Virus record (IMG/VR): IMGVR_UViG_3300032116_015700
Coordinates: 27,094 to 91,093 of that record
Direction: 5' to 3' (one strand)
Source of the DNA: a virus
DNA: 64,000 nucleotides
Shown: positions 1-41,366 of the stretch, piece by piece
Layout: each line of letters begins with the position of its first letter
How positions within the stretch are numbered: the stretch's first letter is position 1
The notes under the pieces: model-generated
What the model was told of the DNA's origin: nothing
Seen by the model: only the letters and a program-made list of their open reading frames with translations
The model's database searches: none
Translations under genes and position numbers: made by a program

Positions 1-453
1 GACATCTATTCTCTTTTGTAATTGAGAATATTCTTCATCTGAAGCATTTATTTGTTCTTTTTTTAATTCTAAAATTCTTCCAGTTATAGTTGAAAATGCG
101 TTACTCTCATTTGTAGATTTTTGTAAAGTTGTTTGAACATCTTTACCCAATCTACCAAAAGATTTTTGAAAATCTTCTTGCGTATCATTATAATCTCCTT
201 GTCTTTTTAATGCTTTTTCCCAAACATCTGTATATTCTTTTGATTTCTTTTCGGAATCAGATATTACTTTTAATTCCTCTTTTAAATTCTTTATATGTTC
301 TTTATCCTGCTCATTTCTTTTTTTAAGACGCTTGATTTCATCTTGTCCTGCCAACGCCATACGTTTATTACGTTCTTCTATTCGTTGTTGGACTTCGTTC
401 TGTTCGTCTAACAGCTGCTTCTTTTTGGATTCATCGGATAAATTTTCTGCCAT
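1..453 (-). CDS. N-terminal part of a coiled-coil protein, probable tape measure protein (runs off the left edge)
   Basis: Not in the ORF track. Manual translation from ATG at 453 (MAENLSDESKKKQLLDEQNEVQQRIEERNKRM...) is open to base 1. K/E/Q-rich and helical; lies downstream of sheath, tube and chaperone. Confidence 0.6.
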   Translation of the reverse strand, partial: MAENLSDESKKKQLLDEQNEVQQRIEERNKRMALAGQDEIKRLKKRNEQDKEHIKNLKEELKVISDSEKKSKEYTDVWEKALKRQGDYNDTQEDFQKSFGRLGKDVQTTLQKSTNESNAFSTITGRILELKKEQINASDEEYSQLQKRIDV

Positions 454-462
454 ATTTTATAA

Positions 463-699
463 TTACTTACTTAAAAATCCAGCTTTTTTCAAGTAATCGT
501 AAATGTCTGGATTTTCTTTTTTTATACGATTTAATTGAACAATTGTATCTGAATTTATTTTTTCATAATCTTTCATTATTTTTTTCAATTCAGGATCATC
601 ATCAATCACCTTTTGAATTGGTTTAGGTGCAGGTTTTTTTCCTGTAATAAAATCCCAAAATTTTTGAAAATTTCCTTCTGATATTTTATATCTTTTCAT
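463..699 (-). CDS. Small hypothetical protein
   Basis: 78-aa ORF with its own copy of the recurrent upstream motif at 720-727. Confidence 0.6.
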   Translation of the reverse strand: MKRYKISEGNFQKFWDFITGKKPAPKPIQKVIDDDPELKKIMKDYEKINSDTIVQLNRIKKENPDIYDYLKKAGFLSK

Positions 700-719
700 A
701 ATGAGTATAATTTAACACT

Positions 720-727
720 TATAAATA
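720..727 (-). promoter_or_regulatory. Putative late-promoter motif (sense TATTTATA)
   Basis: Recurrent intergenic motif about 20 nt upstream of ATG 699. Confidence 0.55.
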
Positions 728-732
728 TCCTA

Positions 733-770
733 TAAAAGAAAAAAGTTAGGATTATCTTTTAATCCTAACT
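733..770 (-). terminator. Intrinsic terminator overlapping the stop of the 752-967 frame
   Basis: 11-bp stem agttaggatta/taatcctaact (744-770), followed by a U-rich run on the minus strand. Confidence 0.65.
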
Positions 771-967
771 CTTGAAGGTTGTTTTTGTGTTTGTGCGTTT
801 TTCACACTTTCATTCTCTTTTTTCTTTGCATCTGCTAACTTATTATAATAAAAGTTTCGTAGATACGTTGGCATATTATATATTTCCATTACCGTAAATC
901 CTTGTCCATAGTACACCATATCAAAGATTTGTGTATGGAGATTTATGCTATGATTACTCGGAAGGCC
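752..967 (-). CDS. gp51-like / GT-type extension of the tail assembly chaperone (internal ATG at 919; probably reached by frameshift)
   Basis: Not in the ORF track. Frame reads GLPSNHSINLHTQIFDMVYYGQGFTVMEIYNMPTYLRNFYYNKL...RIKR*, starting directly after a T7 run in the upstream gene. Confidence 0.7.
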   Translation of the reverse strand, partial: GLPSNHSINLHTQIFDMVYYGQGFTVMEIYNMPTYLRNFYYNKLADAKKKENESVKNAQTQKQPSRVRIKR

Positions 968-1709
968 AAAAAAAGTTTACGCCTAATGCAATAGGCGCCT
1001 CCTCCACCTCTCCATTTTCATGAGTATAAGTAAATTTCATATCCATATCCGGAGAAATTGCTTTAACATAATCTCTAAATGCTTTACTATCTCTAGCTAA
1101 CATATTATTAATATATTTAGTGATATGTCCAATATCAGAATTTCCGTCTACTGATTTTATCATATATCTCAAACGAGTGGTAATATCACTCTTTATATCT
1201 TTATTAAGTTTTTCTAATGCCGTAATATCCTTCTCTACAGCCTTTTCATCACCGTGTGTCAATAGTTTGAATATAAGTTTATTTTTACCAGCTGGTGTTA
1301 TAAACTCAAATTCGTTTTTACTATTATAAATTGAAGTATCAACATTTTTTGTTTTTATTTGGGAAAGGTCACATCTTGCTTTCAAAACTTCATTTTTTAC
1401 CGAAGAAAAAAAAGAAAAATCATAATCTGGACCATAACCCAACATACGCGTTGCTAATAATATTGCGTTTTTATCTCCTATTAGTATTTCATCAGGATTA
1501 ATATTATCAACTAAAATAGATTCAAATAATTTATCTAAAACTATACCCTTTCTAATTAGATTACCTGAAGCTAAAATATCTTCTTCTTTAGCTGTCATTA
1601 ATTTTATTGTAATTCTACCAGATGAAAGTGGATTATCTTTTGGATAAAGTTTACCTTCAGATGGTAAATCTAACACTTCCGTTGGAAAATCAAATTGTTT
1701 TTCTTGCAT
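954..1709 (-). CDS. T4 gp26-like baseplate hub / tail assembly chaperone
   Basis: LPSEGKLY, MTAKEEDIL, GDKNAILLATR and C-terminal NFFWP motifs; immediately downstream of the tail tube. Confidence 0.75.
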   Translation of the reverse strand: MQEKQFDFPTEVLDLPSEGKLYPKDNPLSSGRITIKLMTAKEEDILASGNLIRKGIVLDKLFESILVDNINPDEILIGDKNAILLATRMLGYGPDYDFSFFSSVKNEVLKARCDLSQIKTKNVDTSIYNSKNEFEFITPAGKNKLIFKLLTHGDEKAVEKDITALEKLNKDIKSDITTRLRYMIKSVDGNSDIGHITKYINNMLARDSKAFRDYVKAISPDMDMKFTYTHENGEVEEAPIALGVNFFWPSE

Positions 1710-22700: not shown

Positions 22701-25700
22701 AATAAGTACCTTCAGCGTATATGAATGAACTAGAATCAATAAATAATCCGCCACTTATATCTGATATAAATAAACTACCACTTACTGAAACAGAACCTGT
22801 AAATTGAGATGCAATAGATGCCGTAAACGAACCATCTTCACCAAATGATGATGTAAATGGAGTTAGTACAACGAATCCAAAATCAGGAGATACCGATGCT
22901 GTTACGGATCCAGATTTAATTTCAGCAGATATTAATGCATCTTCAGTAAGTGCTGAACGAGGTATGTTTCTTAAATATGCACCCTCTCCAAAGAAATTAG
23001 AAGATGATTCAAGCAATAATGCTCCAGAAGTTGCATTTATTATCATACTACCAGTAATCAATAAGCTACCGGTAAATTGTGAACCACTATCTACGGATTC
23101 TACTTTAAATCCATAATCAGGTGCTACTGAAGCGGTTACGCTTCCACTCGCTATACGGAATACTTCTTCTGATAATGCTGAACGAGGTATATCAAATAAT
23201 CCTCTACCACTACCACTATACATTGAAGCGGTTAATGTACCTTCTATTTTAGTTGCACCAATAAATTTAATTTCCGCAGGTATTACAATTGAATCTACAA
23301 TATTCATTGTACCTGCCATAGATGAATGCAATTGACAGTTATAATACAAAACATTTGGAGAACCAGATGGTGGAGTAAATGTTATTGTTCCATTATCAGT
23401 ACCATTGTTAGATACTCCACTATTATATTGATTTGCAGTACCTGTTGTTTGTGTTGTCTTAATTAAGAATGGGTGTCCACTTGCATTTATGTTAAAAGTA
23501 TGAGTGACACCTCTTACTAAAGTAAGTGTTGGATTTGAACCTTGTATTGAACCACTAAACACATACTCACCACTTCCATTATTAGTTACATTATAAACAG
23601 GAAATAAAGATGAAGTTAGTACTTCTCTTGCCGATGATGAAACTATAAAACTACCACTAATTGTGGAATATGTATTAACCTCAAATCCTCTATCAGGTGC
23701 TATTGATGCTGTTACACTTCCACTAAATATTTTTGTAGAATCAATTGCTAAATTGGCTAATGTAATATTTGTTAATTTAGAACCATCCCCAACAAAGAAA
23801 GAACCACTTTCTACATAAAGACTTCCACTTACTCTTACACTACCAGTAAAGAATGAACCACTTGCGGCAGATTTAACTACAAATCCAAAATTAGGTGAAA
23901 CTGATGCCGTTACTGAACCAGATTTGATTTCAGTTGATATCAATGCATCTTCACTTAATGCATTTCTTGGAATATTTCTTAAATAAGTACCTTCACCAAA
24001 ATATGCAGATGATGAATCTAAAATTAATGAGCCCGATGTTGTTGTTACTCTTAAACTTCCAGTTATAGCAACACTACCCGTTATTCTAGAACCCAAATCT
24101 GACGATTCAACGATAAATCCTCTATCAGGTAATGCAGAGGCAGTAACACTACCACTTGCAATTCTAAATAATTCTTGCGAAAGTGCTGAAAACGGAATAT
24201 CTGTCAATCCAGCACCACTACCACTAAATACCGATGCGGAAACTCCCATTCTAAATCTTGCACTGCCACTTACACTTAAACTACCACTAAATGCAGAACC
24301 ACTTGCTACTGAATTTACTACAAATCCAAAATTAGGTGCTACTGAAGCGGTAACGCTACCACTAAAGATTTTAGAAGTATCTAAATCAGATATTGCGGAA
24401 CGAGGTATATCAAATAAATTTCTACCGCTACCAGAATATGATGAACCGGATGATAAGAATACACCACCTCCACTTATGAATAAACTTCCACTAAATCTTG
24501 AACCACTTGTTATTGATTCTACTCTAAATCCAAAATTAGGTGCTACCGATGCGGTTACACTACCACTAGCAATTAACGAAATATCAAAAGATAAAGCAGA
24601 ACGTGGAATATCGTAAAGAAATCTACCACTACCACTAAATGAAGAACCCGTCTCCAAAAATACACCACCACCAGTAATAAACAACGAACCAGTGAATCTA
24701 GAACCAAATTCAGCAGATTCAACTTTAAAACCAACACTATCAGGATTTACTGATGCGGTTACACTACCACTTGAAATTCTGTTTGATACTTCCGATGGAA
24801 CATTTCTCAATCCACTACCATCTCCTACAAAAGAACCAGATACTAAAGAAGCACTGACTATAAAAGCTCTCAAACTACCACTTATATCAACAGAACCTGT
24901 AAATTGAGAACCATACGCTGAGCCCGTTCTATCGGTTTCAACTTTGAATCCAAAATCAGGTGTTGTTGATGCGGTAATTGAACCTGATGCTATTCTAAAT
25001 GCATCACCGGTAAATGCAGAACGTGGAATATTAAATAATCCACTACCATCTCCTTGAAAGAATGAACCACTAAAAGAGCCTGTAAATTCCCTTGCTCTTA
25101 CATAATCTCTTACATACAATCCACCACTTATAGCAGTATTGCCTTCAAATAAAATTCTATCTTGAAGATATAAGTTATCAACTATACTCATTGATGCACC
25201 CATCGCAGAGTGGAATTGACACTGATAAAATAAAGTATCAGGTGAACCCGAAGGAGGTGTGAAATATACTGAACCACTATCTTCACCGTTATTTACAACT
25301 CCAGTATTATATTGTGCTGCTGTACCAGTTGTGGCAGTTGTTTTTATAAAGAAAGGATGCCCGTTTGCATTTACTTCAAAGCGGTAAGTTACCCCTCTTA
25401 CTAAAGTCAATGCTGGGTTTTGTCCACTTGCTGCACCATCAAATACATATGCAGATGAACCAGCTGAAGTTACATAAAAATAATTTGGTATTGATGAGGT
25501 TGCTAGCGGTTCTGCTGAAGATGATACTACAAAACTACCACTAATTGTTGAACGAGTATTTACAGTAAATCCGTAATCTGGTGTAATTGATGCGGTATAT
25601 GAACCACTAAATATTTTTGATGTATCTAAATCAGATATTGCCGTTTTTGGAATATCAAAAAGGAATCTACCGCTACCAGAATAAGAACCAGAATATAATT

Positions 25701-27324: not shown

Positions 27325-28257
27325 TTATTCATTTGCAGATTCAAGAAGTGAAAGAATTACTGATAAATCTGGCGAGCCAGAAACAATAAAGCCATATCCT
27401 TCCTCTAATACTAATTTACCTGCTACAACAGGTGAAAGTGAATCCGCTGCCGGAATTGTTACGTTTGTAACCAACTGAATAGGATTTTGTGCTATTAAAG
27501 TTGGATTTTCAATTGTGTTTATTACAGTATTTACTAATCCATTTATAACATAAGCAGAACTACTAAATTGTAAAGTTGTAGGACTAAAAGAATTAAAAGA
27601 TTGAGTTACTGTGTTTTGATACAATCTACTAACAAATTGAGATGCTGTTACTGATTGATTTTTTATTACTTGTTGACTTAAATAATTAAAATATTCTAAA
27701 GCGTCTAACGATGATGAATATTCCTCAGGAAAATTTGTTTTTATAATATTAATACCGTTTTTTGTAAAATATGATTTTGCAGCTTTATCAGTTCTAATTT
27801 TTAGATTATTATCTAAATCATAAGAAATTGCGTCTGCTAAATCTAAAGCGTAATTTTCAAATCTTGAAGAAGTAAATACAAAAGGAGTTTCAGAAAGATT
27901 ATTTTGAAATGATGAATATGCAGCCACTTCTTTTCTTAAAAATTGTCTATTAAGAGCCAGAAGTGCCGATGCACTATCAAAACTTCCACTAAAATTATCT
28001 AATGTTACAAACCCACCAACAGATGCGCTTATAAAAGAACTACCACTATAAACACCTTCAAAAGATGGTAATGGAATTTCTCTATTAGATGTTACTAATA
28101 TAGTTACAGGCTGTGTAACAAAACTATTGTTTGTAATTTGTGCAGAAAGAACAATTGATGAAACACCTACCGGCGTAACATAAACTTCATCCTGCTCACC
28201 AGTCAGAGATGTTACTACTGACTGAAATCGGTTTAACGGTACAAATACATTTGCCAT
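27325..28257 (-). CDS. Fibre adaptor with an inserted helical domain
   Basis: Both termini align with the 110-aa protein (VYVTP...KLVLEEG...SLLE); the middle resembles one repeat unit of the 4363-aa protein. Confidence 0.6.
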   Translation of the reverse strand: MANVFVPLNRFQSVVTSLTGEQDEVYVTPVGVSSIVLSAQITNNSFVTQPVTILVTSNREIPLPSFEGVYSGSSFISASVGGFVTLDNFSGSFDSASALLALNRQFLRKEVAAYSSFQNNLSETPFVFTSSRFENYALDLADAISYDLDNNLKIRTDKAAKSYFTKNGINIIKTNFPEEYSSSLDALEYFNYLSQQVIKNQSVTASQFVSRLYQNTVTQSFNSFSPTTLQFSSSAYVINGLVNTVINTIENPTLIAQNPIQLVTNVTIPAADSLSPVVAGKLVLEEGYGFIVSGSPDLSVILSLLESANE

Positions 28258-28274: not shown

Positions 28275-31200
28275 TTATATTTGAAGTGCCAATGAGAACG
28301 GAGTTACCAATGAGAATAGAGATTTACTAAACGTTCTACCCACAAGAGTACCAGTTGCCTGGTTAATACTTAAACCAGTACCGATTCTAAAGTCACCATC
28401 TTGGTTACCGGATGTGAAGAAGATTCTACCCCCACCCAATTCGGTAATTTCAAAAGCCGGATTTGCAACACCACTACCACCTTGGTTTGGAGGGAGTGCT
28501 TTAAATGTCACACCACTACCATTATAGGAGTAGTCAATACCAGTTGCCACAATTAGAGAACCAAATGATTCCAATGGTGCTCCAGCTGCGATAAACTCAG
28601 CTCTCGTTCTTAAATATCTATTTGTTTCAAGAGTCTCTAATTTTTGAGAAGAAATTACCGCTTGTGCACTTCCATATTGTCCTGTATAGTAAGAAGATGC
28701 TGCTGCAATTGCTCTTTCATTGCCACCATACAACAAATCAGTTGCACATGCATCAACAATCAATCCAGTATCTCTTGAACAACTAGCTTCATTATATACT
28801 AAATATGGGAATGCTCCATTTGTATATCCGATTGCTCTTTGTTTCAATTCATCTTTAGCCGCTACTAATCTTGCTGCTGCTTGTCTTCTCTTTGTAGAAG
28901 GTGCTAAATAAGTTAATTGAGTGTTTCTAACTAATTTTTCAGCTATACCTCTTGCAAAGTTAATACCATCTACAGTTTGTTTCTTTTGTCCAACTTCACC
29001 ATTATCAGTATATGATTCTGCGATTGCTACTGAAGGTATTCTATAATAATAAGAACCTGCCTCAATACTTCTTTCATTACCACCATATACCAAGTCAGTT
29101 CTGATAGCGTCTATAATAAATCCTAAATCACGAGAACAACTTACTTCGTTATATTTTAATGTACTCCAAGAAGAACTCAAGAAAGTAATTGTTTCTTTTT
29201 GAATTAATGGTTTATTGAATGTTAATAGTTGAGCCGTTCTCATTAATGAACCAGAAGCAACCCACACATCTACATAAGTTGGATTTGTTACTGATTTACT
29301 TGCCAATCTTCCCGCATATCTTACACCAGTAATTGTTGGGTCCAATTGGTTTTGTTCAGAAGGTACACCTGCGTTAGTTGCCCTTGATGGGAATAAATAA
29401 TAGTATGTTCCCGCTATTACACTTCTTTCTTGTCCACCATAAAGAAGGTCAGTTGTTGCTGCATCAATCAAATACTTAACATCTCTACTACAACTTGCTT
29501 CGTTATATTTAACACCACTCCAAGAAGATGAAACATATGCAATAGCTTCCGCCGCAATAAAGTTTTTGTTTTCTCTTAATAAGTAAACTGAAGAAGATAC
29601 TGCCAAAGATGCTGTATTAAACTCAACGTTTTGTATTACCTTTTGTGCTATTCTACTTGCGTAGTTTATACCATCATTGGTTTGTTTTAATTGCCCATCA
29701 CCATCTCCATCGCCCAATAAAGTTGCTTTAGATGGATATTTGAAATAGAATTCTCCACTCATCACAGTTCTTTCATTACCACCATACAATAGGTCAGTTG
29801 CTACACCATCAATAATATATCCAACATCTCGTCTACACTTAGCTTTATCATAATTAAAGTTAGCCCAACTTGATGTTAAGTAATGTAATGTTTCTTCTTG
29901 TATAAACTCTCTATTACTTCTTAACAATGCTACTGAAGCAGATACTACTTGCGATGCGGTAACAAATACTTTATTTTGAATAATGTTCTTAGCTATTCCA
30001 CCCGCGTAATCAATTGCATTTACAGTAGATTCTAATTGAGAACCAGTAGCCAATGAAGGATATAAGAAATAATACAATCCTGCTTTAGCACTTCTCTCAT
30101 TACCACCATAAAGAATATCAGTTGATACGGCATCTATTAGGTGTCCAACATCCCTTCTACATTTAGATTCGGTATATTGTAAACCAACCCAAGAAGAACT
30201 TACATAAGCAATAGTTTCTTCTTGTATGAATGCCTTATTTTGTTTCATTAACGCGTGAGATGCTGATGCGTAGATTGAAGCGGTAAAGAATTGAGTATTT
30301 ACAATTACTTTTTGTGCCAATTGCCCTGCATATCTCATAGCATCCAATGTTTCATCTAATTGAGAACCAGTTGCCGCTGATGGATATAAGTAATAATATA
30401 ATCCCGCAGTTCTTATTCTTTCATTACCACCATAATAAACATCGGTTGCAACAGCGTCTATAATGTGAGAAATATCTCTCTTACACTTATCTTCGTTATA
30501 TGTAAATGCTACATCAGAATTAGAACCAGTCACCCAAGATGAACTAATATACGCTATTGTTTCATTCTGAATAAATGGTTTATTTTGATTTAGCAATGTC
30601 CATGCAGTTGTTCTTTCAATTGAAGCTGTTTGGTACTCAATATTTTGAAGTACTTTTTGTGCTAATTTACTTGCGTAGAATAATCCATCCAATGTGTAGT
30701 TCAATTGAGAATCAGTTGCTTGTGATGCTGATTCAAAATAGAACTTACCATTTACAATTGATGCAGAATCTACACCAAACAACATATCTTCAGCTGCACC
30801 ACTAATAATCAATCCAACATCTCTCTTACATTTAGTTTCATCGTAAGATGCAGTACTCCAAGAAGAACTAATATACGCGATAGTTTCATTTTGAATGAAT
30901 CCTATGTTTTCTTTTAATAAGTTATATGCGTAATAAACATTAGATGCAGTTGATGGAGTTGTGTAAACTACAGGAGTTGGTAATGAAGCAGTTCCAATTG
31001 CCACAATATTTGTTACTATTGAAATTGATGCTGAAATTAAAGAAGCCTCATAAGTTGTTCCATAATTAGATGATGCAGTTATATACTGATTTGCATTTGT
31101 AAACTTAATACTTTCAGATGTATTTGAAATTAATGATGGAATTGAACCCGTACCAACTTCTACAATATTTGTTACTACTGCAAATGATGAACTTACTCTA

Positions 31201-34200
31201 TTCACTTCATATGCGGATGCTGAGTATGAAGCTGAGTATTGTGTTGTTCCAGTAACTTTAATATTATTCGCAGTATTCAATATAATTTGTGGTTCTGCTA
31301 TTAAGTTACTATTAATGATTTGCTCAGTTAATCTTCTAGCATAATCAATTGCAGTTGTTGTTTCAACTACCTGCTCTGATTCGGTTGCCAATGAAGGATA
31401 TAAGTAATAGAACTCTCCAGCTTTATTACTTCTTTCATTACCACCGTATAATAGGTCAGTTGCTACTGCATCTACAATATATCCAACATCTCTACGGCAT
31501 TTAGATTCAATATAATCCAACTCAGGCCATTTAGCGTTTACAAACGCTACGGTTTCTTCCTGAATGAAAGTTTTGTTATTTTTAATTAGATTATATGCGG
31601 TTTGGTTGTTAGCAGATGGTGATACAAATGTTGAACCACTCACAATATTCATCGCTAATCCCCTAGCATGTCTAACGCCGGTTAATGTTGGTTCTAATTG
31701 TTCATCAGTTGCTTCGGATGGGTAATCATAATAATATCTACCTGCAATAATACTTCTCTCATTACCACCATATAAAATATCGGTTGCAACCGCATCTATA
31801 ATGTAACCTAAATCTCTTTCACATTTAGATTGAGAATACACAAATCCTTGCCAAGATGAACTTAAATACGCAATAGATTCTGATACTATAAATTGTTTGT
31901 TTGTTCTTAATGATGCCCAAGAAGAAGAAACAAATGATGAAGAAAAATGTGTTAATACAGTATTTCTAACTACTTTTTCAGCCATTCCACCTGCAAACTT
32001 TAATGCAGTTACAGTCTGGTCTAATTGAGAACCAGTAGCTTGAGAAGGATAGTCAAAATAGAATCTTCCATTTACGAAAGATGCGGAGTTTCCACCATAT
32101 AATAAATCAAATGCTGCACCACTTATAATTAACCCTACATCTCTACTACAACTTGCCTCATTATATACAAATGTTGACCAAGATGAACTCATAAATGCAA
32201 TTGTTTCATCTATAATCATTTGTTTATTATCTAATAATAAATTATACGCATTATTGATTTTTGCATTAGTATTTGGAGTAATAGCAGGTGCCTCATAAAC
32301 AACTGAACTCGTACCATCATTTAATAATGTATCAATTACTAAAGAGAATGATGAAGAAATAAGTTTAGCTTGTAATCTATCTGCACTACTTCCACTTATT
32401 ATTTGCGGTGTTGCTGTAACTTTAATACTTGCAGATGTATTTGGTATTAATGTTGGAATTACCGATGTTCCGGTATTTACTATATTCAATACAATACCAA
32501 ACAAGTTACCAATTCTATTTATTTCAGAACCACTACCCGTAATTGAAATTGCGGTTGCGGTTGTTGTTTTTATTGAAGAAGAAGTATTTGAAACCAATGT
32601 TGGTATAGAACCAGTTCCATTGTTTATAATATTAATTACGTTTCCAAATGAACTACTAATACTTGCAGTTTGGGTGTTATACGTTCCACTTCCTAAACTT
32701 TGTGTTATTGATGAAATATGCAATAAAGTTGGTGTACTTAATTGGAATCCATAATTGTAATTATTTGCCAAACTATCAGGCACAGACGCAGAACCCCAAT
32801 AAATAATATCTCTTATTAATCCAAATGATGCCGTTGTTATACCAACTTCAATTGAACTTGCTGATACAGATGAAGTAATTTGAGATTCATTTGATACTTT
32901 AATAGAAGAACTTGAGTTTGTTACAAGTGGTGGTACTACATTCAATCCACCTGCAATAATTTCAGTAACTAATGCAAATGATGAACTCACTTTATTAATT
33001 TCTACTGTTGTGGCAGATATTGATGATGTAATTGGAGTTATATGACTTACTCTAATATTTGCATTAGTATTTGAAACTAAAGTAGGTGAAGATAATTGTA
33101 AATTTTGAACTATCTTTTTAGAAAGTGATTTTGCATATTCAACACCCGCTACAGTTTCAACTACCTGGTCAACTTTAGTTGCTTTAGATGGATATCTATA
33201 ATAGTAATCACCAGCAATAATACTTCTCTGATTACCACCATACCAAAGGTCAGTTGCTACGTTATCAACGATATACCCAACATCCCTTCTACATTTTTCT
33301 CTATTATATCTCAAATATGGATAGAAAGCATCAATAAATTGAATAGTTTCGTTTTGTATAAATGTTCTATTATTTTTAAGAAGATTATACGAAGATGAAA
33401 CAAATTCAGTTGGTGAAGTCAATAATTGTGAAGATATTACTTTTTGTGAAATACCCGCTGCAAATTGAATACCATCAATAGTAGGTCCTTTTTGTGCATT
33501 CGTTGTTGGAGAAATTGATGAAGTATATACTGCTGCAGAAGGATATAAATAATAGTATTCACCTGCTTTAGAACTTCTTTCGTTACCACCATATAATAGG
33601 TCAGTTGCTACATTATCAATAATATACGCAACATCTCTACTACAACTTAATTCGTTAAATGTAAAACCACCAACATTAGTCCAAGATGAACTCAAAAATG
33701 CAATAGTTTCTTTTTGAATTAATTGTTTATTTTGTCTTAACAAATTCCATGCAGTAAGTTCTGAATTAGTAGGTTGTAATAATGTTATATTTTTTGCTAC
33801 CTTTTCAACTAAACCTTTAGCGTGTTTAATACCATCCAATGTTTGGTCTAATTGTCCTTCATCATTACCATCACCTTCTACTATTGCAAGAGATGGATAT
33901 AAATAATAGTATTCACCAGCTTCTCTACTTCTCTCATTTCCACCATAAAGTATATCAGTTGCCACAGCGTCAATTATGTAACCAACATCCCTTCTACATT
34001 TAATTTGGTCATATTGGAAAAAACTCCATGCAGAATTAAGGAATCCAATAGTTTCAGTTTGTACTAAATCTTTATTTTCTTTTACTAAATTATATGTAGT
34101 TTGAACTGAAAGTGAAGCTGTTACAAATACTCTATTATTAAGTATTTGCTCCACCATATGCTTAGCGTGCTTAATACCACTTAATGTTGGTCCTAATTGA

Positions 34201-37200
34201 GATGTTGTTGCTTGAGATGGGTATCTATAATAAAACTCCCCTGCCTCTATACTTCTTTCATTACCACCATAAACTAAATCAGTTGCAACTGCATCTAAAA
34301 TATAACCAACATCTCTTTTACATGTTTGTTCGTTATATGATGCAGTACTCCAACTTGCAGAAACATATGCGATAACTTCATCGGCAATAAATCCTTTATT
34401 ATTGTAAATCAACTCTCTTGCCTGCAATCTATTTTGAGATACTTTACTAAATGTATTACCTCTTAATAGTTTATCTGCCAAATCTCTTGCATATCCAATA
34501 CCAGTAACAGTTTCTTGTATTTGTGAGCCTGTTGCTTCTGATGGATAAAGGTAATAATAAACTCCTGCTTTAATTGTTCTTTCGTTGCCACCCCACTTAA
34601 CATCAGTTGCCACTGCGTCAATTATATAACCAACATCTCTCTTACAAGTATTTTGGTCATAAGAATGAGATGCCCAAGAAGAAGATAAATATGCAATTGT
34701 TTCTTCTTGAATAAATCTTTTGTTGTTTACTAAAATATCATGTGCAACTAATGATTGTGAATTTGGATATGATAATACCGTATTTACAATTAGTTTTTGT
34801 GCTAATCTACTTGCATAGAATACTCCATCTAAAGTTTGATTTAATTGTGAACCTTGTGCTTGAGATGGGTAATCGTAATAAAATTTACCGTTTACTACTG
34901 ATGCGGAGTTACTATTCCAAATAAGGTCTTCAGCTGCGCCACTAATAATTAATCCAACATCTCTACGGCATTTTTCTTCATCATAAGATGCAGTTGACCA
35001 AGATGAACTCAAATAAGCAATAACTTCATTTTGTATGAATGGTATATTTTGTTTTAATATTCCGTATGCTGCTAATACAGCCGATGAAGATACCGATGAA
35101 GTATATGATGATGTAGGTAAATTTGCTATAAATGAACCAGTACCATTTGATATAATATTTGTTACTATTGAAATAGATGCCGATATTGCATTTACTTCGG
35201 TTTGTGTTGCAGATGATGCAGAAATGTATTGTGGTGTTGATGTAACTTTAATATTATTTACAGTATTTAGAACAAGTGTTGGTAAAGAGCCTGTACCATT
35301 TTCTAATATATTAATTACTCTATTAAAACTAGAAGTTATATTATTAGCTAATGATTTAGATACTGCAACTGATGATGAATATTGAGTTTCATTTGTTATT
35401 CTCAACAATGCGTTTACATTCTTTACCAATGTTGGTAATGAGCCAGTTCCTTCTTTCACAATATCTAAAACAATATCAAAACTATTGTTTGAGCCAGTAA
35501 TAAATGTATTAGATATAGATGCGGTTGAAATAAATTGAGGATAGTTTGTATTTTTAATTAATCCACTTGCATTATTTACCAAATTTGGAATTGAACCAGT
35601 ACCATTTGCTATAATATCCAATACTATATTAAAACCAGTAGTTACTTTTGCAGAATCAGATGGAAGTGGTTGTACCGATGAACTAAATTGATTATTAGTT
35701 AAACGTATAACACCCTTTATTGAAGAAGATGTAATTGTTGGTATTGCAGAAATACCTTTATCTATAATATTAATTACATTTCCAAATGATTGAGATACAA
35801 TGTTTTTATCGGTTTGATTTACAATACTTGAAGTAATTGTTTGTACTTCACTAGTCTTTTTAATACCATTTTCAGTATTTGAAACTAAAGTTGGAAACGC
35901 AGAACTACCACTTTCAATAATTTTTGCTACATTATCAAAACTATCTTCTATTGCCTTACCACCAATCGCAACCAACTTTGCCAAATCTCTCGTAAATCTT
36001 ACTGCATCGGTTGTTTCGGTTACTTGTGCATCCGTTGCTTGTGATGGGTATAAGAAATAGAATCTTCCTGCAGTAATTGCTCTCTCATTTCCACCATATA
36101 CTAAATCAGTTAAAACATTATCAGTTATAAATCCAACATCTCTAAAGCATTTAGATTGTATATAATTTAATGTTGGATATGTATCGTTCACATACTCAAT
36201 AGTATTTTGTTGTAAGAATGTTCTATTATCTTTTACTAATTTTCTTGCGGCTAATACAGCTTCAGATGGATTAGTTAAACTAACATTCTTAATAATATTT
36301 TGTACTAATTGATTTGCGTAATAAACACCTGTTATAGTTGGGTCTAATTGCTGAGATACGGAAGGTTCTCCACCCACCGTTGCTGCAGATGGATATCTAT
36401 AATAAAAATCACCAGCAACAATACTTCTTTCATTTCCACCATATACCAAATCAGTTCTTACTGCATCTAAAATATATCCCACATCTCTTTTACACTTAGC
36501 CTCATTATAATAAACTCCACTCCAAGAAGATGAAACATATTCTACAACTTCTGCCGCAATAAGTTCTTTGTTTCTTCTTATTAACTCACTTGCGTTTATT
36601 GAATTAAGTGAAGCTTGTGTGAATGTTTCTCCAACAACAATCTTTTGTGCTAATCTACTTGCGTAGTTGATAGCATCAGTTGTTTGAATTAATTGTGAAC
36701 CAGTTGCTGCCGATGGATATGTAAAATAGTAATCCGCTGCTATTCTAGTTCTTTCATTACCGCCATAGATAATATCAGTTCTGATTGCATCTAAAATATA
36801 TCCAATATCCCTTCTACAAGTTGTTTCATTGTAATCAAAACTTCCCCAAGATGAACTCATATATGCTATGGTTTCATCTGCTATAAAATCTTTGTTATTC
36901 AATATCAAGAATGAAGCACTTGCTCTACTTCCAGTAAATTGTTGTAATTCTATATTTTGAATTAATTTTTGTGCTAATCTACTTGCGTAGTTAATACCAT
37001 CTAAAGTTTGTGCCAATTGAGAACCAGTAGCCTGCGATGGATATTCATAATAGAATTGTCCATTTACTACTGATGATGAATTTACGTTAAAAATTAAATC
37101 TTCAGCGGCACCACTTATAATTAATCCAACATCTCTACGGCATTTAGCTTCATCATACTCAAATGTACTCCAAGAAGAACTTAAATATGCTATTGTTTCG

Positions 37201-40200
37201 TCTTGTATGAAATCAATATTTTGTTTAATTATTTCATAAGCAGCTCTTGCATTAGATGATGATAATGGAGCCGTATATGGTTGCTTACCAAATACACCTG
37301 CACTCTCACCTCTTTCAATAATTTTAGTTACAATTGAAATTGAAGATGAAATAAATGCAACATCTTCCAAGCTTCCACTATAAGATGAAGAAACGTATTG
37401 TTCAGTTGCACTTACTTTAATATTTTGAGATAAAGAAGAAGTTAATACAGGTATTACCGATTTACCACTTACTAATACATCGGTAATAAGTTTCATTGAT
37501 GAACTAATACTTTGTGATTCTGCAGTTGTTGCTGGTATTGCCAAAGTTTCTAACGATGTAGCAGTTACTTTAATGTTTGCCGCTACACTTGATGTATAAA
37601 GTGGAATTGAACCAGTACCATTTGTAATTATTGTACCTATCAATGATATAGATGCGGACAATGAACTACTTAACGCACCACTTGCGGCATTTGAACCACT
37701 ATATTGTGCTAATGAAGTTACTTTTATCGCATTTGCCTGTGAGTATGTGATTGCTGGTTCAGCTGCAATACCACCTGCAATAATTGTATTTACAATATCA
37801 TATCCACTTCCAATTTTATTAACTTCGGATGGAGATACAAATGATGATGTAACCTGTGAACCAGATGTTACATTAAGAGGATTATCTTTACCCCAATTTA
37901 AACCCGTATTTTGTGCCAATATTGAAGGTACAGCGGATATACCTCTTTTAATAATTCCTTCAATAATTGCAAAAGAACTACTAATAGAATTTTGTTGAGT
38001 TTGCGTACCACTATTTGATGATGTTACATTTGTATTATTTGTAACTTTAAAATTTCTCTCATCATTATTTACAATTCTTGGTGTATCTAAAATAATATTA
38101 CTTACAATATAATCAGTAATAATTTTTGCGTATTTAATTGCACCAATTGTTTCTCTTCTTTGAGTTGTTGTAGCAATAGATGGGTATTCATAATAATATT
38201 TACCTGCTATTACACTTCTCTCATTTCCACCATACAACAAGTCAGTTGAAACATTATCTAATATGTATCCAACATCACGTCTACACTTTTCTTGGTTATA
38301 TGATAATTGTGGAAAAGCAACATTTACAAATTCAATTACTTCATTTTGTATTAAACTCTTATTACTTCTTATTAAAGAGTATGCAGCTTGTGAAGATGTA
38401 GTTGGTAAACTAAATGTTTTTCCTGCAACTAAATTATTTACTAAACCTGCTGCAAAGCGAATACCATCTAAAGTTTGTCCCAATTGTCCATTACCATCAC
38501 CATCTCCCTCAACAATCGCTAATGAAGGATATAAATAATAAAATTCACCCGCTTCAATACTTCTTTCATTACCTCCATATAGAGTATCAGTTGCTACAGC
38601 ATCTAGAATATAACCAACATCTCGTTTACACTTTGCTTCATTATAATAAAAATTAGACCAAGAAGAAGATAAAAATGCAATAGTTTCATTTTGTATAAAT
38701 GATTTATTGTTATTGATTACTTGCCATGCAGTTTTTCTTTTTTGTGTATATGCATCTAAATCAATATCCCTAAATGTTTTATTTTTGATAAGTTCAATTG
38801 CTAATCTAGCTGCGTATTTTACTGCTGTTTTGGTTGGGTCTTTTTGTGATGTAATTGCACTAGATGGATATTCGTAATAGAATCTACCTGCAGTAATACT
38901 TTTATCATTACCACCCAATAATAGGTCTTGCGCAACAGCATCAATCAAGAAACCAACATCTCTACGGCAGGTTGCCTCATTGTAATAGAATCCATCTACA
39001 CCACTCCAAGAAGATGAAATATACTGTATTACTTCTTCTTGAATAAATGCTTTACTTCCGGTAAGAATTTCAAATGCGTTAATTATATCAGTGTCTTCAC
39101 TAGCCACACTTCCACTTATAGTTGCTGGATATGTTAGTGTATTTGCAATTAATTCTCTTGGAGTTTCTGAATTATTTATTATAAAGAATCTACCACTTAA
39201 TGTATTATTAATTTGTGATGTATAATATAATGTATTTGGTGCATCATATGGTACAGTGAACGTAATATTACCAACACTATCACCATTATTTATTACGCCT
39301 TTATTATAATCAAAAGTGTTTGCAATAGTTTCAACTGGTTGTGTTCTTATAAAGAATGGATAATCAATTCCACCTTGTCCTTCCGATGCACTTACATAAA
39401 ATTTATAAGTTTCACCTCTAAATAAAGTTATTGTAGGATTATTACCAACACCATCCCAATTATAAGATGAACTGTTTACATTTGTAATTGTATAATTTCT
39501 TCTATGGTTATTTGGAATTGGTAAAATATTACTACCAGTACCATTTGATAATATGTTATAAATTATACTAAAACTTGCACTTACTTTATTAATTGTTTCT
39601 ACTGAAGATGAGATACCACTTTGAACTGGTTCTAATCCACCAATATAAAAACTTGCACTTAATGAAGAAGTTAATTTTGGTACAACACTTAATCCATTTT
39701 TTATAATATCTATTACGGTTTCAAAAGATGAACTTATACTAGCGGTTACATCATTTGGTAATGCCGGAGAAGCAGGTGATGGTATTATTGATGTTCTTCT
39801 AATACTTGCCGATGTTGATGATTTAAAATCATAGGAACCAGTACCATTTGAAAAAATACCTAATAATACACCAAACGAAGAGCTAATTTGATTTAAATCT
39901 CCTTGAGATGCAGATAGTGGAGTAGCCGAACCAGAATAAGAGCCTGTAATTTGTGTTGCTCCTAAAATATTATAAGGTGATTCTGAACTAAATCCTTTAT
40001 TTGAACTTCTTGCTAATAACGTAGGATAATTTGAAGTACCACTATCTACTATTTCACTTACTAATTTAAAATCCGCTGAAATTTCATCCGCAGCGGTTGA
40101 AGATAATTCTACTCCAGATGAAGTAGTGTATTGTGGAAATTGAGAAGGAGATGATAAACGGATACCTTCCGCTGTATTTAATGTTGTTACTTCAGGCAAT

Positions 40201-41366
40201 GCATCTAACCCTCTATTCAATACATCAACAACTACACTCCAACTTGCTCTTACTCTATCTCTAGCATCAATATTTCCACCACTACCACTAATAAAACGAG
40301 AACCACTAGCATACATACCATACAAACCAAACGAAATGTTTGAGTTGTTTAGGGTAGCATGTCCACCATTGTTTACTCTAATTGCATAATATGAGAAGTT
40401 ATTAAAGAAAGATACGAGCTGAATGAATCCTCTACCATTTACCAAACAACCAACTCCGTTTGGAGAAATTTGTGTATAGGCATCTAATACCATTGAAGCG
40501 AGTGGTGAATCAGGATTGATTACATCACCATTAACATACAATCCACCACCGCCAGGAGGAATTTCTTCATAAAGCTCCGTAAATGAATTCTCTTGGTTAG
40601 AAATTTGTGAACAGTTCTGAACGTATGGTGAAGTTGTGATAAATGCACCAGGTTGGAACGCTACAGCAAATCCTTTTTCAGGATTTATTTGGTCAGGAAA
40701 TAATCTCAATCCTCCCATAGTAACCTCTGCGATATAACAACCAGAGTTTACATAGAATAAGTCTTCAGTAGGGTTTTTAGCGTTGATTTTTGTAATACGC
40801 AAACCTGCACCCCAAATAGTTGTATTTTTAGGAAGTATAACAGGGTTATCTTCCAAATATGTACCAGCCTGAACTTTAATTACATATCCATTTTGAATAG
40901 AACCCGTATCAAAACCATAACGTCCATCGTATCCAGGTGCTGCTAATGATGCAGCTCTTTTAATTGTACGAAGTGGAAATTGAATAGTTCTACCATCATT
41001 TGTATCATCACCATCGGTAGAAGAAACATATAGTGTAGGTACGTTAGCACCAAAATCTTTTGCCAAAATACCAGAATATCTTTGTGTATCTTCTGCTAAT
41101 ATTGTGTTTGATGATGTAATTGATAAAACAGTATTAGGTGCTCCCGTTTTTAGAACACCATCAATTATCAACGAACCAGTTAAAAATACTGAACCTGTAA
41201 TCTCATTTTTTGAACCGGTATCGTTTCCCATAAAGAAACTTTTTGATACAAAAAGTGAGCCAGAAATAATCGCATCATTTCCTAAAAACAAGTTTTCCGC
41301 AACCGTTAAAGACCCGGTTATATTTTGTTGTTCTTCAATTTGTTTACGAGGTATCAGTCTAGCCAT
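28275..41366 (-). CDS. Giant virion appendage protein (4363 aa): split pectin-lyase-like beta-helix with 23 nested helical domains
   Basis: LYVSSTDGDDTNDG...LRTIKRA, VQAGTYLED and SPYVQNCS at the N-terminus; 23 C-x-RD-x-G-x-I-x-D...GGN repeats; C-terminal GGGRIFFTSGNQDGDFRIG. Confidence 0.8.
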   Translation of the reverse strand: MARLIPRKQIEEQQNITGSLTVAENLFLGNDAIISGSLFVSKSFFMGNDTGSKNEITGSVFLTGSLIIDGVLKTGAPNTVLSITSSNTILAEDTQRYSGILAKDFGANVPTLYVSSTDGDDTNDGRTIQFPLRTIKRAASLAAPGYDGRYGFDTGSIQNGYVIKVQAGTYLEDNPVILPKNTTIWGAGLRITKINAKNPTEDLFYVNSGCYIAEVTMGGLRLFPDQINPEKGFAVAFQPGAFITTSPYVQNCSQISNQENSFTELYEEIPPGGGGLYVNGDVINPDSPLASMVLDAYTQISPNGVGCLVNGRGFIQLVSFFNNFSYYAIRVNNGGHATLNNSNISFGLYGMYASGSRFISGSGGNIDARDRVRASWSVVVDVLNRGLDALPEVTTLNTAEGIRLSSPSQFPQYTTSSGVELSSTAADEISADFKLVSEIVDSGTSNYPTLLARSSNKGFSSESPYNILGATQITGSYSGSATPLSASQGDLNQISSSFGVLLGIFSNGTGSYDFKSSTSASIRRTSIIPSPASPALPNDVTASISSSFETVIDIIKNGLSVVPKLTSSLSASFYIGGLEPVQSGISSSVETINKVSASFSIIYNILSNGTGSNILPIPNNHRRNYTITNVNSSSYNWDGVGNNPTITLFRGETYKFYVSASEGQGGIDYPFFIRTQPVETIANTFDYNKGVINNGDSVGNITFTVPYDAPNTLYYTSQINNTLSGRFFIINNSETPRELIANTLTYPATISGSVASEDTDIINAFEILTGSKAFIQEEVIQYISSSWSGVDGFYYNEATCRRDVGFLIDAVAQDLLLGGNDKSITAGRFYYEYPSSAITSQKDPTKTAVKYAARLAIELIKNKTFRDIDLDAYTQKRKTAWQVINNNKSFIQNETIAFLSSSWSNFYYNEAKCKRDVGYILDAVATDTLYGGNERSIEAGEFYYLYPSLAIVEGDGDGNGQLGQTLDGIRFAAGLVNNLVAGKTFSLPTTSSQAAYSLIRSNKSLIQNEVIEFVNVAFPQLSYNQEKCRRDVGYILDNVSTDLLYGGNERSVIAGKYYYEYPSIATTTQRRETIGAIKYAKIITDYIVSNIILDTPRIVNNDERNFKVTNNTNVTSSNSGTQTQQNSISSSFAIIEGIIKRGISAVPSILAQNTGLNWGKDNPLNVTSGSQVTSSFVSPSEVNKIGSGYDIVNTIIAGGIAAEPAITYSQANAIKVTSLAQYSGSNAASGALSSSLSASISLIGTIITNGTGSIPLYTSSVAANIKVTATSLETLAIPATTAESQSISSSMKLITDVLVSGKSVIPVLTSSLSQNIKVSATEQYVSSSYSGSLEDVAFISSSISIVTKIIERGESAGVFGKQPYTAPLSSSNARAAYEIIKQNIDFIQDETIAYLSSSWSTFEYDEAKCRRDVGLIISGAAEDLIFNVNSSSVVNGQFYYEYPSQATGSQLAQTLDGINYASRLAQKLIQNIELQQFTGSRASASFLILNNKDFIADETIAYMSSSWGSFDYNETTCRRDIGYILDAIRTDIIYGGNERTRIAADYYFTYPSAATGSQLIQTTDAINYASRLAQKIVVGETFTQASLNSINASELIRRNKELIAAEVVEYVSSSWSGVYYNEAKCKRDVGYILDAVRTDLVYGGNERSIVAGDFYYRYPSAATVGGEPSVSQQLDPTITGVYYANQLVQNIIKNVSLTNPSEAVLAARKLVKDNRTFLQQNTIEYVNDTYPTLNYIQSKCFRDVGFITDNVLTDLVYGGNERAITAGRFYFLYPSQATDAQVTETTDAVRFTRDLAKLVAIGGKAIEDSFDNVAKIIESGSSAFPTLVSNTENGIKKTSEVQTITSSIVNQTDKNIVSQSFGNVINIIDKGISAIPTITSSSIKGVIRLTNNQFSSSVQPLPSDSAKVTTGFNIVLDIIANGTGSIPNLVNNASGLIKNTNYPQFISTASISNTFITGSNNSFDIVLDIVKEGTGSLPTLVKNVNALLRITNETQYSSSVAVSKSLANNITSSFNRVINILENGTGSLPTLVLNTVNNIKVTSTPQYISASSATQTEVNAISASISIVTNIISNGTGSFIANLPTSSYTSSVSSSAVLAAYGILKQNIPFIQNEVIAYLSSSWSTASYDEEKCRRDVGLIISGAAEDLIWNSNSASVVNGKFYYDYPSQAQGSQLNQTLDGVFYASRLAQKLIVNTVLSYPNSQSLVAHDILVNNKRFIQEETIAYLSSSWASHSYDQNTCKRDVGYIIDAVATDVKWGGNERTIKAGVYYYLYPSEATGSQIQETVTGIGYARDLADKLLRGNTFSKVSQNRLQARELIYNNKGFIADEVIAYVSASWSTASYNEQTCKRDVGYILDAVATDLVYGGNERSIEAGEFYYRYPSQATTSQLGPTLSGIKHAKHMVEQILNNRVFVTASLSVQTTYNLVKENKDLVQTETIGFLNSAWSFFQYDQIKCRRDVGYIIDAVATDILYGGNERSREAGEYYYLYPSLAIVEGDGNDEGQLDQTLDGIKHAKGLVEKVAKNITLLQPTNSELTAWNLLRQNKQLIQKETIAFLSSSWTNVGGFTFNELSCSRDVAYIIDNVATDLLYGGNERSSKAGEYYYLYPSAAVYTSSISPTTNAQKGPTIDGIQFAAGISQKVISSQLLTSPTEFVSSSYNLLKNNRTFIQNETIQFIDAFYPYLRYNREKCRRDVGYIVDNVATDLWYGGNQRSIIAGDYYYRYPSKATKVDQVVETVAGVEYAKSLSKKIVQNLQLSSPTLVSNTNANIRVSHITPITSSISATTVEINKVSSSFALVTEIIAGGLNVVPPLVTNSSSSIKVSNESQITSSVSASSIEVGITTASFGLIRDIIYWGSASVPDSLANNYNYGFQLSTPTLLHISSITQSLGSGTYNTQTASISSSFGNVINIINNGTGSIPTLVSNTSSSIKTTTATAISITGSGSEINRIGNLFGIVLNIVNTGTSVIPTLIPNTSASIKVTATPQIISGSSADRLQAKLISSSFSLVIDTLLNDGTSSVVYEAPAITPNTNAKINNAYNLLLDNKQMIIDETIAFMSSSWSTFVYNEASCSRDVGLIISGAAFDLLYGGNSASFVNGRFYFDYPSQATGSQLDQTVTALKFAGGMAEKVVRNTVLTHFSSSFVSSSWASLRTNKQFIVSESIAYLSSSWQGFVYSQSKCERDLGYIIDAVATDILYGGNERSIIAGRYYYDYPSEATDEQLEPTLTGVRHARGLAMNIVSGSTFVSPSANNQTAYNLIKNNKTFIQEETVAFVNAKWPELDYIESKCRRDVGYIVDAVATDLLYGGNERSNKAGEFYYLYPSLATESEQVVETTTAIDYARRLTEQIINSNLIAEPQIILNTANNIKVTGTTQYSASYSASAYEVNRVSSSFAVVTNIVEVGTGSIPSLISNTSESIKFTNANQYITASSNYGTTYEASLISASISIVTNIVAIGTASLPTPVVYTTPSTASNVYYAYNLLKENIGFIQNETIAYISSSWSTASYDETKCKRDVGLIISGAAEDMLFGVDSASIVNGKFYFESASQATDSQLNYTLDGLFYASKLAQKVLQNIEYQTASIERTTAWTLLNQNKPFIQNETIAYISSSWVTGSNSDVAFTYNEDKCKRDISHIIDAVATDVYYGGNERIRTAGLYYYLYPSAATGSQLDETLDAMRYAGQLAQKVIVNTQFFTASIYASASHALMKQNKAFIQEETIAYVSSSWVGLQYTESKCRRDVGHLIDAVSTDILYGGNERSAKAGLYYFLYPSLATGSQLESTVNAIDYAGGIAKNIIQNKVFVTASQVVSASVALLRSNREFIQEETLHYLTSSWANFNYDKAKCRRDVGYIIDGVATDLLYGGNERTVMSGEFYFKYPSKATLLGDGDGDGQLKQTNDGINYASRIAQKVIQNVEFNTASLAVSSSVYLLRENKNFIAAEAIAYVSSSWSGVKYNEASCSRDVKYLIDAATTDLLYGGQERSVIAGTYYYLFPSRATNAGVPSEQNQLDPTITGVRYAGRLASKSVTNPTYVDVWVASGSLMRTAQLLTFNKPLIQKETITFLSSSWSTLKYNEVSCSRDLGFIIDAIRTDLVYGGNERSIEAGSYYYRIPSVAIAESYTDNGEVGQKKQTVDGINFARGIAEKLVRNTQLTYLAPSTKRRQAAARLVAAKDELKQRAIGYTNGAFPYLVYNEASCSRDTGLIVDACATDLLYGGNERAIAAASSYYTGQYGSAQAVISSQKLETLETNRYLRTRAEFIAAGAPLESFGSLIVATGIDYSYNGSGVTFKALPPNQGGSGVANPAFEITELGGGRIFFTSGNQDGDFRIGTGLSINQATGTLVGRTFSKSLFSLVTPFSLALQI
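28600..40270 (-). repeat. Interleaved blocks of A (~105-120 aa, CxRD) and B (~50 aa, ISSSFxIVxxIIxNG) repeats
   Basis: Order by manual count: B5-A3-B5-A4-B6-A6-B5-A3-B2-A7. Confidence 0.85.

Follow-up and report, generated by a model that had tools for sequence, protein, structure and literature searches.

Organization of a giant virion-like protein

The window analyzed here is a 64,000-nucleotide stretch of viral DNA (IMG/VR record IMGVR_UViG_3300032116_015700, positions 27,094 to 91,093). A single open reading frame (ORF), P0001, found in the ORF list with its translation, encodes a protein of 4363 amino acids (aa) at window 28275..41366 on the minus strand, the strand of all features of this gene described below. 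Its profile matches to PHROG 4527 "short tail fiber" (E 4e-210) and PHROG 5342 "tail fiber" (E 5.5e-193) suggest a giant virion or tail-fibre-like protein. The protein contains two kinds of repeated units, A and B, which we interpret as halves of split domains that probably pair in nested order to form a branched rod.

The N-terminal region (aa 1-365; 40272..41366) combines an N-terminus conserved among homologs with a probable right-handed beta-helix domain, matched by Pect-lyase_RHGA_epim only weakly and below the cut-off (E 0.0013). It is followed by units B1-B5 (39474..40253), detected with a hidden Markov model (HMM) of the B unit. Reading B units as opening and A units as closing brackets predicts that B1 and B2 pair with A23 and A22 in a trunk, and B3, B4 and B5 with A3, A2 and A1 in branch 1. 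At the tip of this branch lies an inserted domain of 137 aa (aa 621-757; 39096..39506). It had been thought cupredoxin-like, and no cupredoxin match was found; a weak, sub-threshold match to CBM_4_9 (E 0.0011) and one to a glycosidase beta domain (E 0.2) suggest that it is probably a beta sandwich. A1-A3 (38103..39095) score 135-148 bits with the A HMM. The next block, B6-B10 (37302..37985), would contribute B6, which carries a distinct linker described below, to the trunk as partner of A21, and B7-B10 to branch 2. The A units of branch 2 are A4-A7 (35973..37259), with A4 of a tip type and A7 of a base type by their motifs. Branch 3 would consist of a rising strand, B11-B16 (35130..35951), and a returning strand, A8-A13 (33108..35087). 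B17-B21 (32253..32990) are assigned from structure models to the trunk pairs B17/A20 and B18/A19 and, for B19-B21, to branch 4, together with A14-A16 (31314..32270). The predicted trunk tip is formed by B22-B23 (30969..31196) and its returning strand by A17-A23 (28590..30947); orthology matrices show that B22 and A18 are missing in homologs with 22 units of each kind. A C-terminal domain of about 104 aa (28275..28589, stop codon included) matches the C-terminal part of PHROG 3442 and is conserved even in a strongly diverged relative.

The motif C-x-R-D, searched for as a regular expression, occurs 23 times, in groups of 3, 4, 6, 3 and 7. Its C, R and D residues never vary, either among the 23 units of the window or in a set of 78 diverse units. 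With HMMs built from the units we detected 23 A units (102-154 bits) and 23 B units, and a scan of P0001 and the neighbouring ORFs gave no additional full A or B unit. The weakest B unit is B1 (RASWSVVVDVLNRG), whose orthologs in two relatives (L012 and L037) are canonical. The order of units is B5 A3 B5 A4 B6 A6 B5 A3 B2 A7 and the running balance of B minus A is 5, 2, 7, 3, 9, 3, 8, 5, 7, 0. Both the equal totals and a balance that never becomes negative had been counted by hand in the original prediction, and our recount is identical; this observation in the window is confirmed.

Sequence variants follow the same parse, as had also been noticed. GLIISGAA is confined to A4, A8, A14 and A17, the predicted tips. 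In A3, A7, A13, A16 and A23, the last A unit of each block, and nowhere else, SSSW is replaced by NVAFP, NDTYP, DAFYP, NAKWP and NGAFP. The distinct linker reported after B2, B6 and B18 was found in the form LA..N...[GN][FWY]....P. A helix-less, B-type linker (P.LV.NT...IKVT) was also observed after each base-type A unit, for instance at aa 1094-1119 (A3), 2752-2784 (A13) and 3359-3382 (A16) of P0001.

How often such an order arises by chance depends on the null used. When sizes from 1 to 8 were drawn at random for five B and five A blocks, 1.4% of trials combined equal totals and a non-negative balance; when the observed block sizes were permuted, 24% kept the balance non-negative. Since even this crude null gives about 1.4%, bracket order in a single protein is only suggestive, and it is the comparison with homologs that decides.

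Balanced architectures in related viruses

We obtained 72 loci by searching IMG/VR with an alignment of A units; the HMMs were iterated and gaps were inspected by eye. Five complete bracket-ordered architectures were found besides that of the window, each balanced and never negative once weak B helices had been rescued manually. B5A3B5A4B6A6B5A3B1A6 has 22 units of each kind (L007, L008, L051, L066 and L017), B5A3B7A6B4A3B4A3B1A6 has 21 (L012), B5A3B5A4B5A8 has 15 (L005, L009 and L010), B5A3B7A6B1A4 has 13 (the L037 group) and B5A3B5A4B2A5 has 12 (L069 and L071), compared with 23 and 23 for B5A3B5A4B6A6B5A3B2A7 in the window. All complete ORFs of the bracket-ordered type are balanced. Among ORFs truncated at the 3' end, automatic calls give nearly all an excess of B and a balance whose minimum is 0; 5'-truncated ORFs have an excess of A. 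The minimum of -1 in two 3'-cut ORFs (L050 and L022) likely reflects uncalled B helices. The first B HMM under-called B units in homologs, and a longer one over-called two linkers; both were corrected by eye.

A diverged homolog of 3385 aa (L072, IMG/VR 3300020172_000983) is organized differently, as ten A-B pairs, a beta-helix insert of 500 aa and five B-A pairs, again with 15 units of each kind. Both permutations of the domain occur within this single chain, which shares the C-terminal domain of the window protein. Every A unit in this homolog has a B-like helix next to it, and an A unit folding without B was not seen. This suggests that the undivided domain is an A core adjoining its own B helix. 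The expectation that homologs gain and lose the two halves in matched pairs is borne out by these balanced totals, including those of the diverged homolog, and by the paired indels described below.

Some relatives show further arrangements. In L003 and L002, whose ORFs are cut at the 3' end, the order B5A3B5A4 B4A2B4A6 B5A3B2A4... implies, as far as the order of units goes, a two-domain sub-branch on branch 3, a putative branch upon a branch. In many relatives inserts lie between consecutive B units, for example at aa 1858-2293 of L069 and in L013, L041 and L070. They measure about 438 aa, with others of about 190, 343 or 497 aa, and are probably extra domains hung on the rising strand. A stop-to-stop ORF of 471 aa close to a contig end (L064) has three A units and zero B units and could represent a frameshift or a disrupted gene.

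Indels and the branch-point linker

Orthology was read from identity matrices between units of the window and those of its relatives. Only indels can discriminate between pairings, because the architectures are conserved and mutual information would score any fixed mis-pairing equally. Compared with L007 and L051, A1-A17 of the window correspond to units 1-17 and A19-A23 to units 18-22, which leaves A18 without an ortholog. Likewise B1-B21 lie on the diagonal and B23 corresponds to unit 22 (81% identity), so that B22 has no ortholog. In MAFFT alignments the gaps of homologs with 22 units of each kind fall at B22 and A18. These two units are non-adjacent, flank the retained tip B23-A17, and are nested partners in the parse. 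This non-contiguous indel supports nested pairing because no other pairing predicts such a pair. L005 and L009 lack the whole of branch 3 (B11-B16 with A8-A13) and the trunk tip (B22 and B23 with A17 and A18).

The linker LA..N...[GN][FWY]....P separates the predicted classes of B units as well. Across seven proteins it is present in 18 of 18 units predicted to precede a branch, 1 of 87 stem units and none of 31 tip units. The single stem unit is the B18 ortholog of L009, a lineage without the trunk tip; it is an exception because loss of the tip turned the branch into the trunk. The 18 units are orthologs of just three positions, and in its independent form the observation is that the linker occurs in 3 of 18 non-tip B units, all three as predicted, with a probability of 1 in 816 by choice of position.

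Predicted fold of the A/B domain

AlphaFold2 (AF2) models of two segments, a hairpin and a junction described in the next section, are both all-helical. We searched them against 48,161 chains of the Protein Data Bank (PDB) using the VIA structure search. Phycobiliproteins and bilin-binding globins occupy ranks 1-8 for the two models (Z 8.3-10.0; 98-117 aligned residues; root-mean-square deviation 2.6-3.4, one row 4.0), with other globins lower. The top matches are allophycocyanin 8or7_A (Z 10.0, deviation 2.7 over 106 aa), photocobilin 8j2y_B (9.8), 8imk_G (9.8), phycoerythrin 5aqd_M (9.5) and the bilin domain of ApcE, 4xxi_A (9.4). A Foldseek search of a three-domain model against the PDB returned meaningless transporter matches only.

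Profile comparisons point in the same direction. Among PDB sequences, a profile of 78 diverse A units matches only phycocyanin alpha chains (best E 0.022). Its KC.RDVGY aligns with KCVRDVGYY around Cys84, placing C-x-R-D on Cys84-Arg86-Asp87 of phycocyanin alpha; CXRD is the chromophore motif of phycobiliproteins (PMC10151467). With hhalign, the A units match 60 CpcA sequences from cyanobacterial loci (probability 87.8, P 3.3e-6), and in a global alignment the contiguous A-B units of the diverged homolog cover CpcA 35-163, their B helix falling on the C-terminal helix H (probability 86, P 5e-7). Alignments begin at CpcA residue 35-39, and no equivalent of the N-terminal X-Y helices was found between units. 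We take A to correspond to helices A-G and B to a permuted last helix H, and consider homology of the A/B domain to phycobiliproteins likely but not proven.

Predicted pairing of A and B units

The hairpin model covers aa 2883-3357 (B19-B21 and A14-A16) and was built from a 64-row alignment of equivalent hairpins. It has a predicted local distance difference test (pLDDT) score of 87.8 and a predicted template modelling (pTM) score of 0.86, with B helices and extended linkers near 90, and represents a single, confidently predicted three-layer antiparallel rod. Single-domain proteins of about 160 aa align to it over residues 42-43..471, 91..364 and 140..255 of the model. These ranges begin about 8 residues past the helices of B19, B20 and B21 and end in A16, A15 and A14, respectively, and so indicate antiparallel nested pairing.

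The junction model covers 1140 aa (aa 2775-3914), comprising B17, B18, the hairpin B19-B21/A14-A16, B22, B23 and A17-A20, with pLDDT 81.6 and pTM 0.61. B17 and B18 are modelled confidently (blocks mostly 76-92) though their predicted partners are more than 850 residues away. Single-domain proteins align over 42..1140 (after B17 to A20), 86-89..1027 (after B18 to A19), 690..804 (B23/A17), 171..471 (B20/A15) and 203..361 (B21/A14) in model numbering. In addition, five B-side bridges (48-49, 158, 207-208, 595-596 and 646-647) match five A-side bridges (1028-1029, 474, 365-366, 920-921 and 805-806) in nested order and size. In the model B17 joins A20 and B18 joins A19, both pairs spanning the inserted branch; B18/A19 is one of the long-range pairs named in the original prediction. 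Three phycobiliprotein rows run 587..1026-1029, which places the helix-less linker after A16 on the A19 domain. In the model this linker seems to replace the ordinary linker lacking in B18, which lacks it because B18 leads out into the branch.

Proposed architecture and alternatives

We consider the best explanation, and a probable one, to be a virion appendage of 23 split, phycobiliprotein-like domains of about 150 residues, joined by nested pairing into a branched rod. Each domain would consist of an A core of about 105 aa (phycocyanin alpha helices A-G with the invariant Cys-x-Arg-Asp) and a B unit of about 50 aa, in which a single helix corresponds to the last helix H but stands ahead of the core and is followed by an extended linker. 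The B units would run outward in series, the chain would turn, and the A cores would return, each taking up the B helix of its own level, so that n B units followed by n A units make an antiparallel rod of n domains. Two-residue bridges between B-B and A-A linkers would mark the domain boundaries. The rising B strand of a hairpin would take up whole further hairpins as insertions, giving a trunk of seven domains (B1/A23, B2/A22, B6/A21, B17/A20, B18/A19, B22/A18 and B23/A17) with side rods of 3, 4, 6 and 3 domains. The base would hold both chain ends and the N-terminal beta-helix domain; if the trunk closes within one chain, the C-terminal domain would lie beside the N-terminal part. Computation supports this recursive-insertion interpretation: nested matched indels, one-to-one stoichiometry, the hairpin rod and the pairing of B17 and B18 with A20 and A19 all come out of the calculations themselves, and each proposed check that was run agreed with the original prediction. 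The remaining trunk pairs, closure of one chain and an overall antler shape would complete the picture, and the appendage may serve as a host-adhesion fibre displaying binding modules at the branch tips.

Several points weigh against this reading. The pairings were read from first and last aligned residues, bridge positions, pLDDT and DSSP strings. Of the seven trunk pairs, the AF2 models cover B17/A20, B18/A19, B22/A18 and B23/A17 only, and with an alignment of 18 rows and pTM 0.61 the junction leaves the angle between branch and trunk undefined. A complex prediction of B1-B2 against A22-A23 gave ipSAE 0.00, was run without controls and counts neither way. Several B helices of homologs were called only by manual rescue, and the automatic caller over-called two helix-less linkers after base-type A units in L012 and L037. 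Because the homolog architectures are related by descent, independent balanced indels number perhaps 6-8, not dozens. As to the fold, Z of about 10 is below the VIA caution line of about 13 and can be generic for helical folds. Homology to phycobiliproteins is marginal by sequence: PF00502 touches A10 alone (window 34131-34448; E 0.0046, 12.9 bits against a cut-off of 22.2) and matches 1 of the 78 diverse A units (E 0.096), and CpcB gives only a weak hhalign match (P 0.034). PHROG names and gene context are the sole basis for a virion location and a role as a fibre.

One alternative is that the hairpin rods are real and the trunk is intermolecular: the seven B units left unpaired in one chain would complement the seven C-terminal A cores of another, in a domain-swapped dimer or trimer or in a head-to-tail polymer. 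Such an assembly would agree with the equal counts and the nested order no less well than a single chain does, B1, B2 and B6 lie 2800-3800 residues from their own A cores, and phage fibres are usually oligomers. However, the junction model places B17 and B18 on the A20 and A19 domains of their own chain, neither a coiled-coil nor a trimerisation signal was detected, and closure within one chain joins the conserved N- and C-terminal domains into a natural attachment base, which together make an inter-chain trunk unlikely.

It could also be that only contiguous hairpins pair and the leftover B and A units of the trunk are unpaired or loosely packed, giving a string of five rods and not a tree. 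The junction pTM of just 0.61 leaves room for this, many indels are contiguous balanced hairpins (L005 compared with the window), and duplication of whole hairpins would keep the totals equal without any trunk. We find this improbable in view of the non-contiguous B22/A18 indel and of B17 and B18, which have high pLDDT and are aligned within the A20 and A19 domains; moreover, the dedicated pre-branch linker and the helix-less linker after base-type A units make sense only with a continuous trunk. That A and B are unrelated repeats in separate segments of a linear fibre, in bracket order by chance, would be hardly credible, even though a chance of about 1.4% under the crude null is not negligible for one protein. 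Six other complete architectures have equal counts, the five bracket-ordered ones never becoming negative, indels occur in matched nested pairs, AF2 packs B helices on A cores, and each A unit of the diverged homolog has an adjacent B helix. The single-chain branched rod remains our preferred reading.

If it is true, this protein is among the deepest and largest recursive domain insertions reported, with 23 domains and a depth of up to 9 compared with six levels in SI3, the insertion of cyanobacterial RNA polymerase discussed below. It would be a rare case of one polypeptide encoding a branched object through a bracket-like grammar. The two-piece domain would offer a design principle for rigid rods and junctions, and the same structural reading would apply to a whole class of unannotated giant virion proteins of cyanophage-like viruses.

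Genomic setting

P0001 belongs to a structural module whose other genes encode a tail sheath, a head-tail adaptor, two collagen-like fibre giants and a gp23-like capsid protein. For the last of these, the nearest matches are the capsid proteins of the Microcystis phage Mel-JY01 (53%) and of Flavobacterium "immuto" phages (51%). The host is likely cyanobacterial. A megablast search with the neighbouring 16 kb matched no phage record, and a Pfam scan of the whole of P0001 gave nothing usable. The collagen-like giants are ORFs of 3513 and 2872 aa (window 16714-27255 and 6052-14670, both on the minus strand) with collagen-like tail-fibre matches; the GC content of their cores is 0.47-0.51 versus about 0.33 in the surroundings. 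Scanning both with the A and B HMMs detected no A or B units.

Directly downstream of P0001, an ORF of 310 aa (window 27325-28257, minus strand) contains one weak A-like unit (aa 86-198, iE 2.4e-5). This unit is without C-x-R-D and is followed by a B-like helix, VINGLVNTVINTIENPTLIAQN, at about aa 235-256. A PHROG search of this ORF gave no match. From its unit content it looks like a single, undivided A-then-B domain protein.

A possible pigment

Why cyanophages carry genes for bilin synthesis is a long-standing puzzle. Among five near-complete related phage genomes with a homolog of P0001, four encode an adjacent pair of haem oxygenase and bilin reductase and one encodes CpeT. Neither Fe_bilin_red nor CpeT was found in the window's own 91-kb record, which is just 52% complete, so that this absence is uninformative. 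The puzzle becomes directly testable with this domain, apparently a permuted phycobiliprotein in which the motif for pigment attachment is retained. It is a tentative possibility, and a somewhat doubtful one, that all 23 domains bind bilin via the Cys of C-x-R-D, which would make the appendage pigmented and possibly light-absorbing, with the haem oxygenase, bilin reductase and CpeT of the relatives serving, at least in part, to load it.

Comparison with known systems

The A/B domain resembles phycobiliproteins and bilin-binding globins (BBAGs, photoglobins; PF00502) in its globin-type fold and in having C-x-R-D at the bilin site, and the "FP(Y)" motif of base-type A units resembles NKFPY of CpcA. 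It differs from phycobiliproteins in falling below the Pfam threshold, in lacking the X-Y helices and in having the last helix permuted or supplied from far upstream. In addition, a single chain holds 23 copies of it, and its gene belongs to a structural module of a phage, outside any phycobilisome context.

Homologs of the A and B units are found in T4-like cyanomyoviruses. With a query of 1241 aa, tblastn gave 24-37% identity over up to 80% of the query, the isolated phages being phages of Synechococcus and Prochlorococcus. These homologs are giant "tail fiber-like / virion structural" proteins of S-PM2, S-RSM4, ACG-2014h, S-H9-1 and S-WAM2 (PHROG 4527 and 5342), and pieces of them in BFVD match the window model. 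Their database names carry no structural description, and we found no publication on a split-domain order or a phycobiliprotein likeness of these giant proteins. The window phage differs from the marine cyanomyoviruses in its capsid protein, which is instead nearest to those of Mel-JY01 and the "immuto" phages.

The closest structural precedent is SI3 of RpoC2, the beta' subunit of cyanobacterial RNA polymerase, in which recursive domain insertion has nested eight domains in six levels with bifurcating nodes (PMC13114784). In both proteins one chain contains repeats of one fold, each split by the next, the sequence is bracket-like, and one host can carry more than one insertion. Domains made of two distant pieces with whole domains between them are also found in the window protein, as indicated by the model ranges 42..1140 and 86..1028, the balanced counts and the nested indels. 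In contrast, the domains of SI3 are beta domains of the sandwich-barrel hybrid motif (SBHM), whereas those of the window protein are a helical, phycobiliprotein-like globin; the latter number 23, with a running depth of up to 9, compared with 8-12 domains and 6 levels in SI3. One half of each window domain is a single helix, so that runs of halves form long two-stranded rods, and the setting is a virion appendage and not a lobe of an enzyme. The principle of recursive insertion is already known from SI3; what is new here is the fold, the scale, the one-helix half that makes rods and the virion setting.

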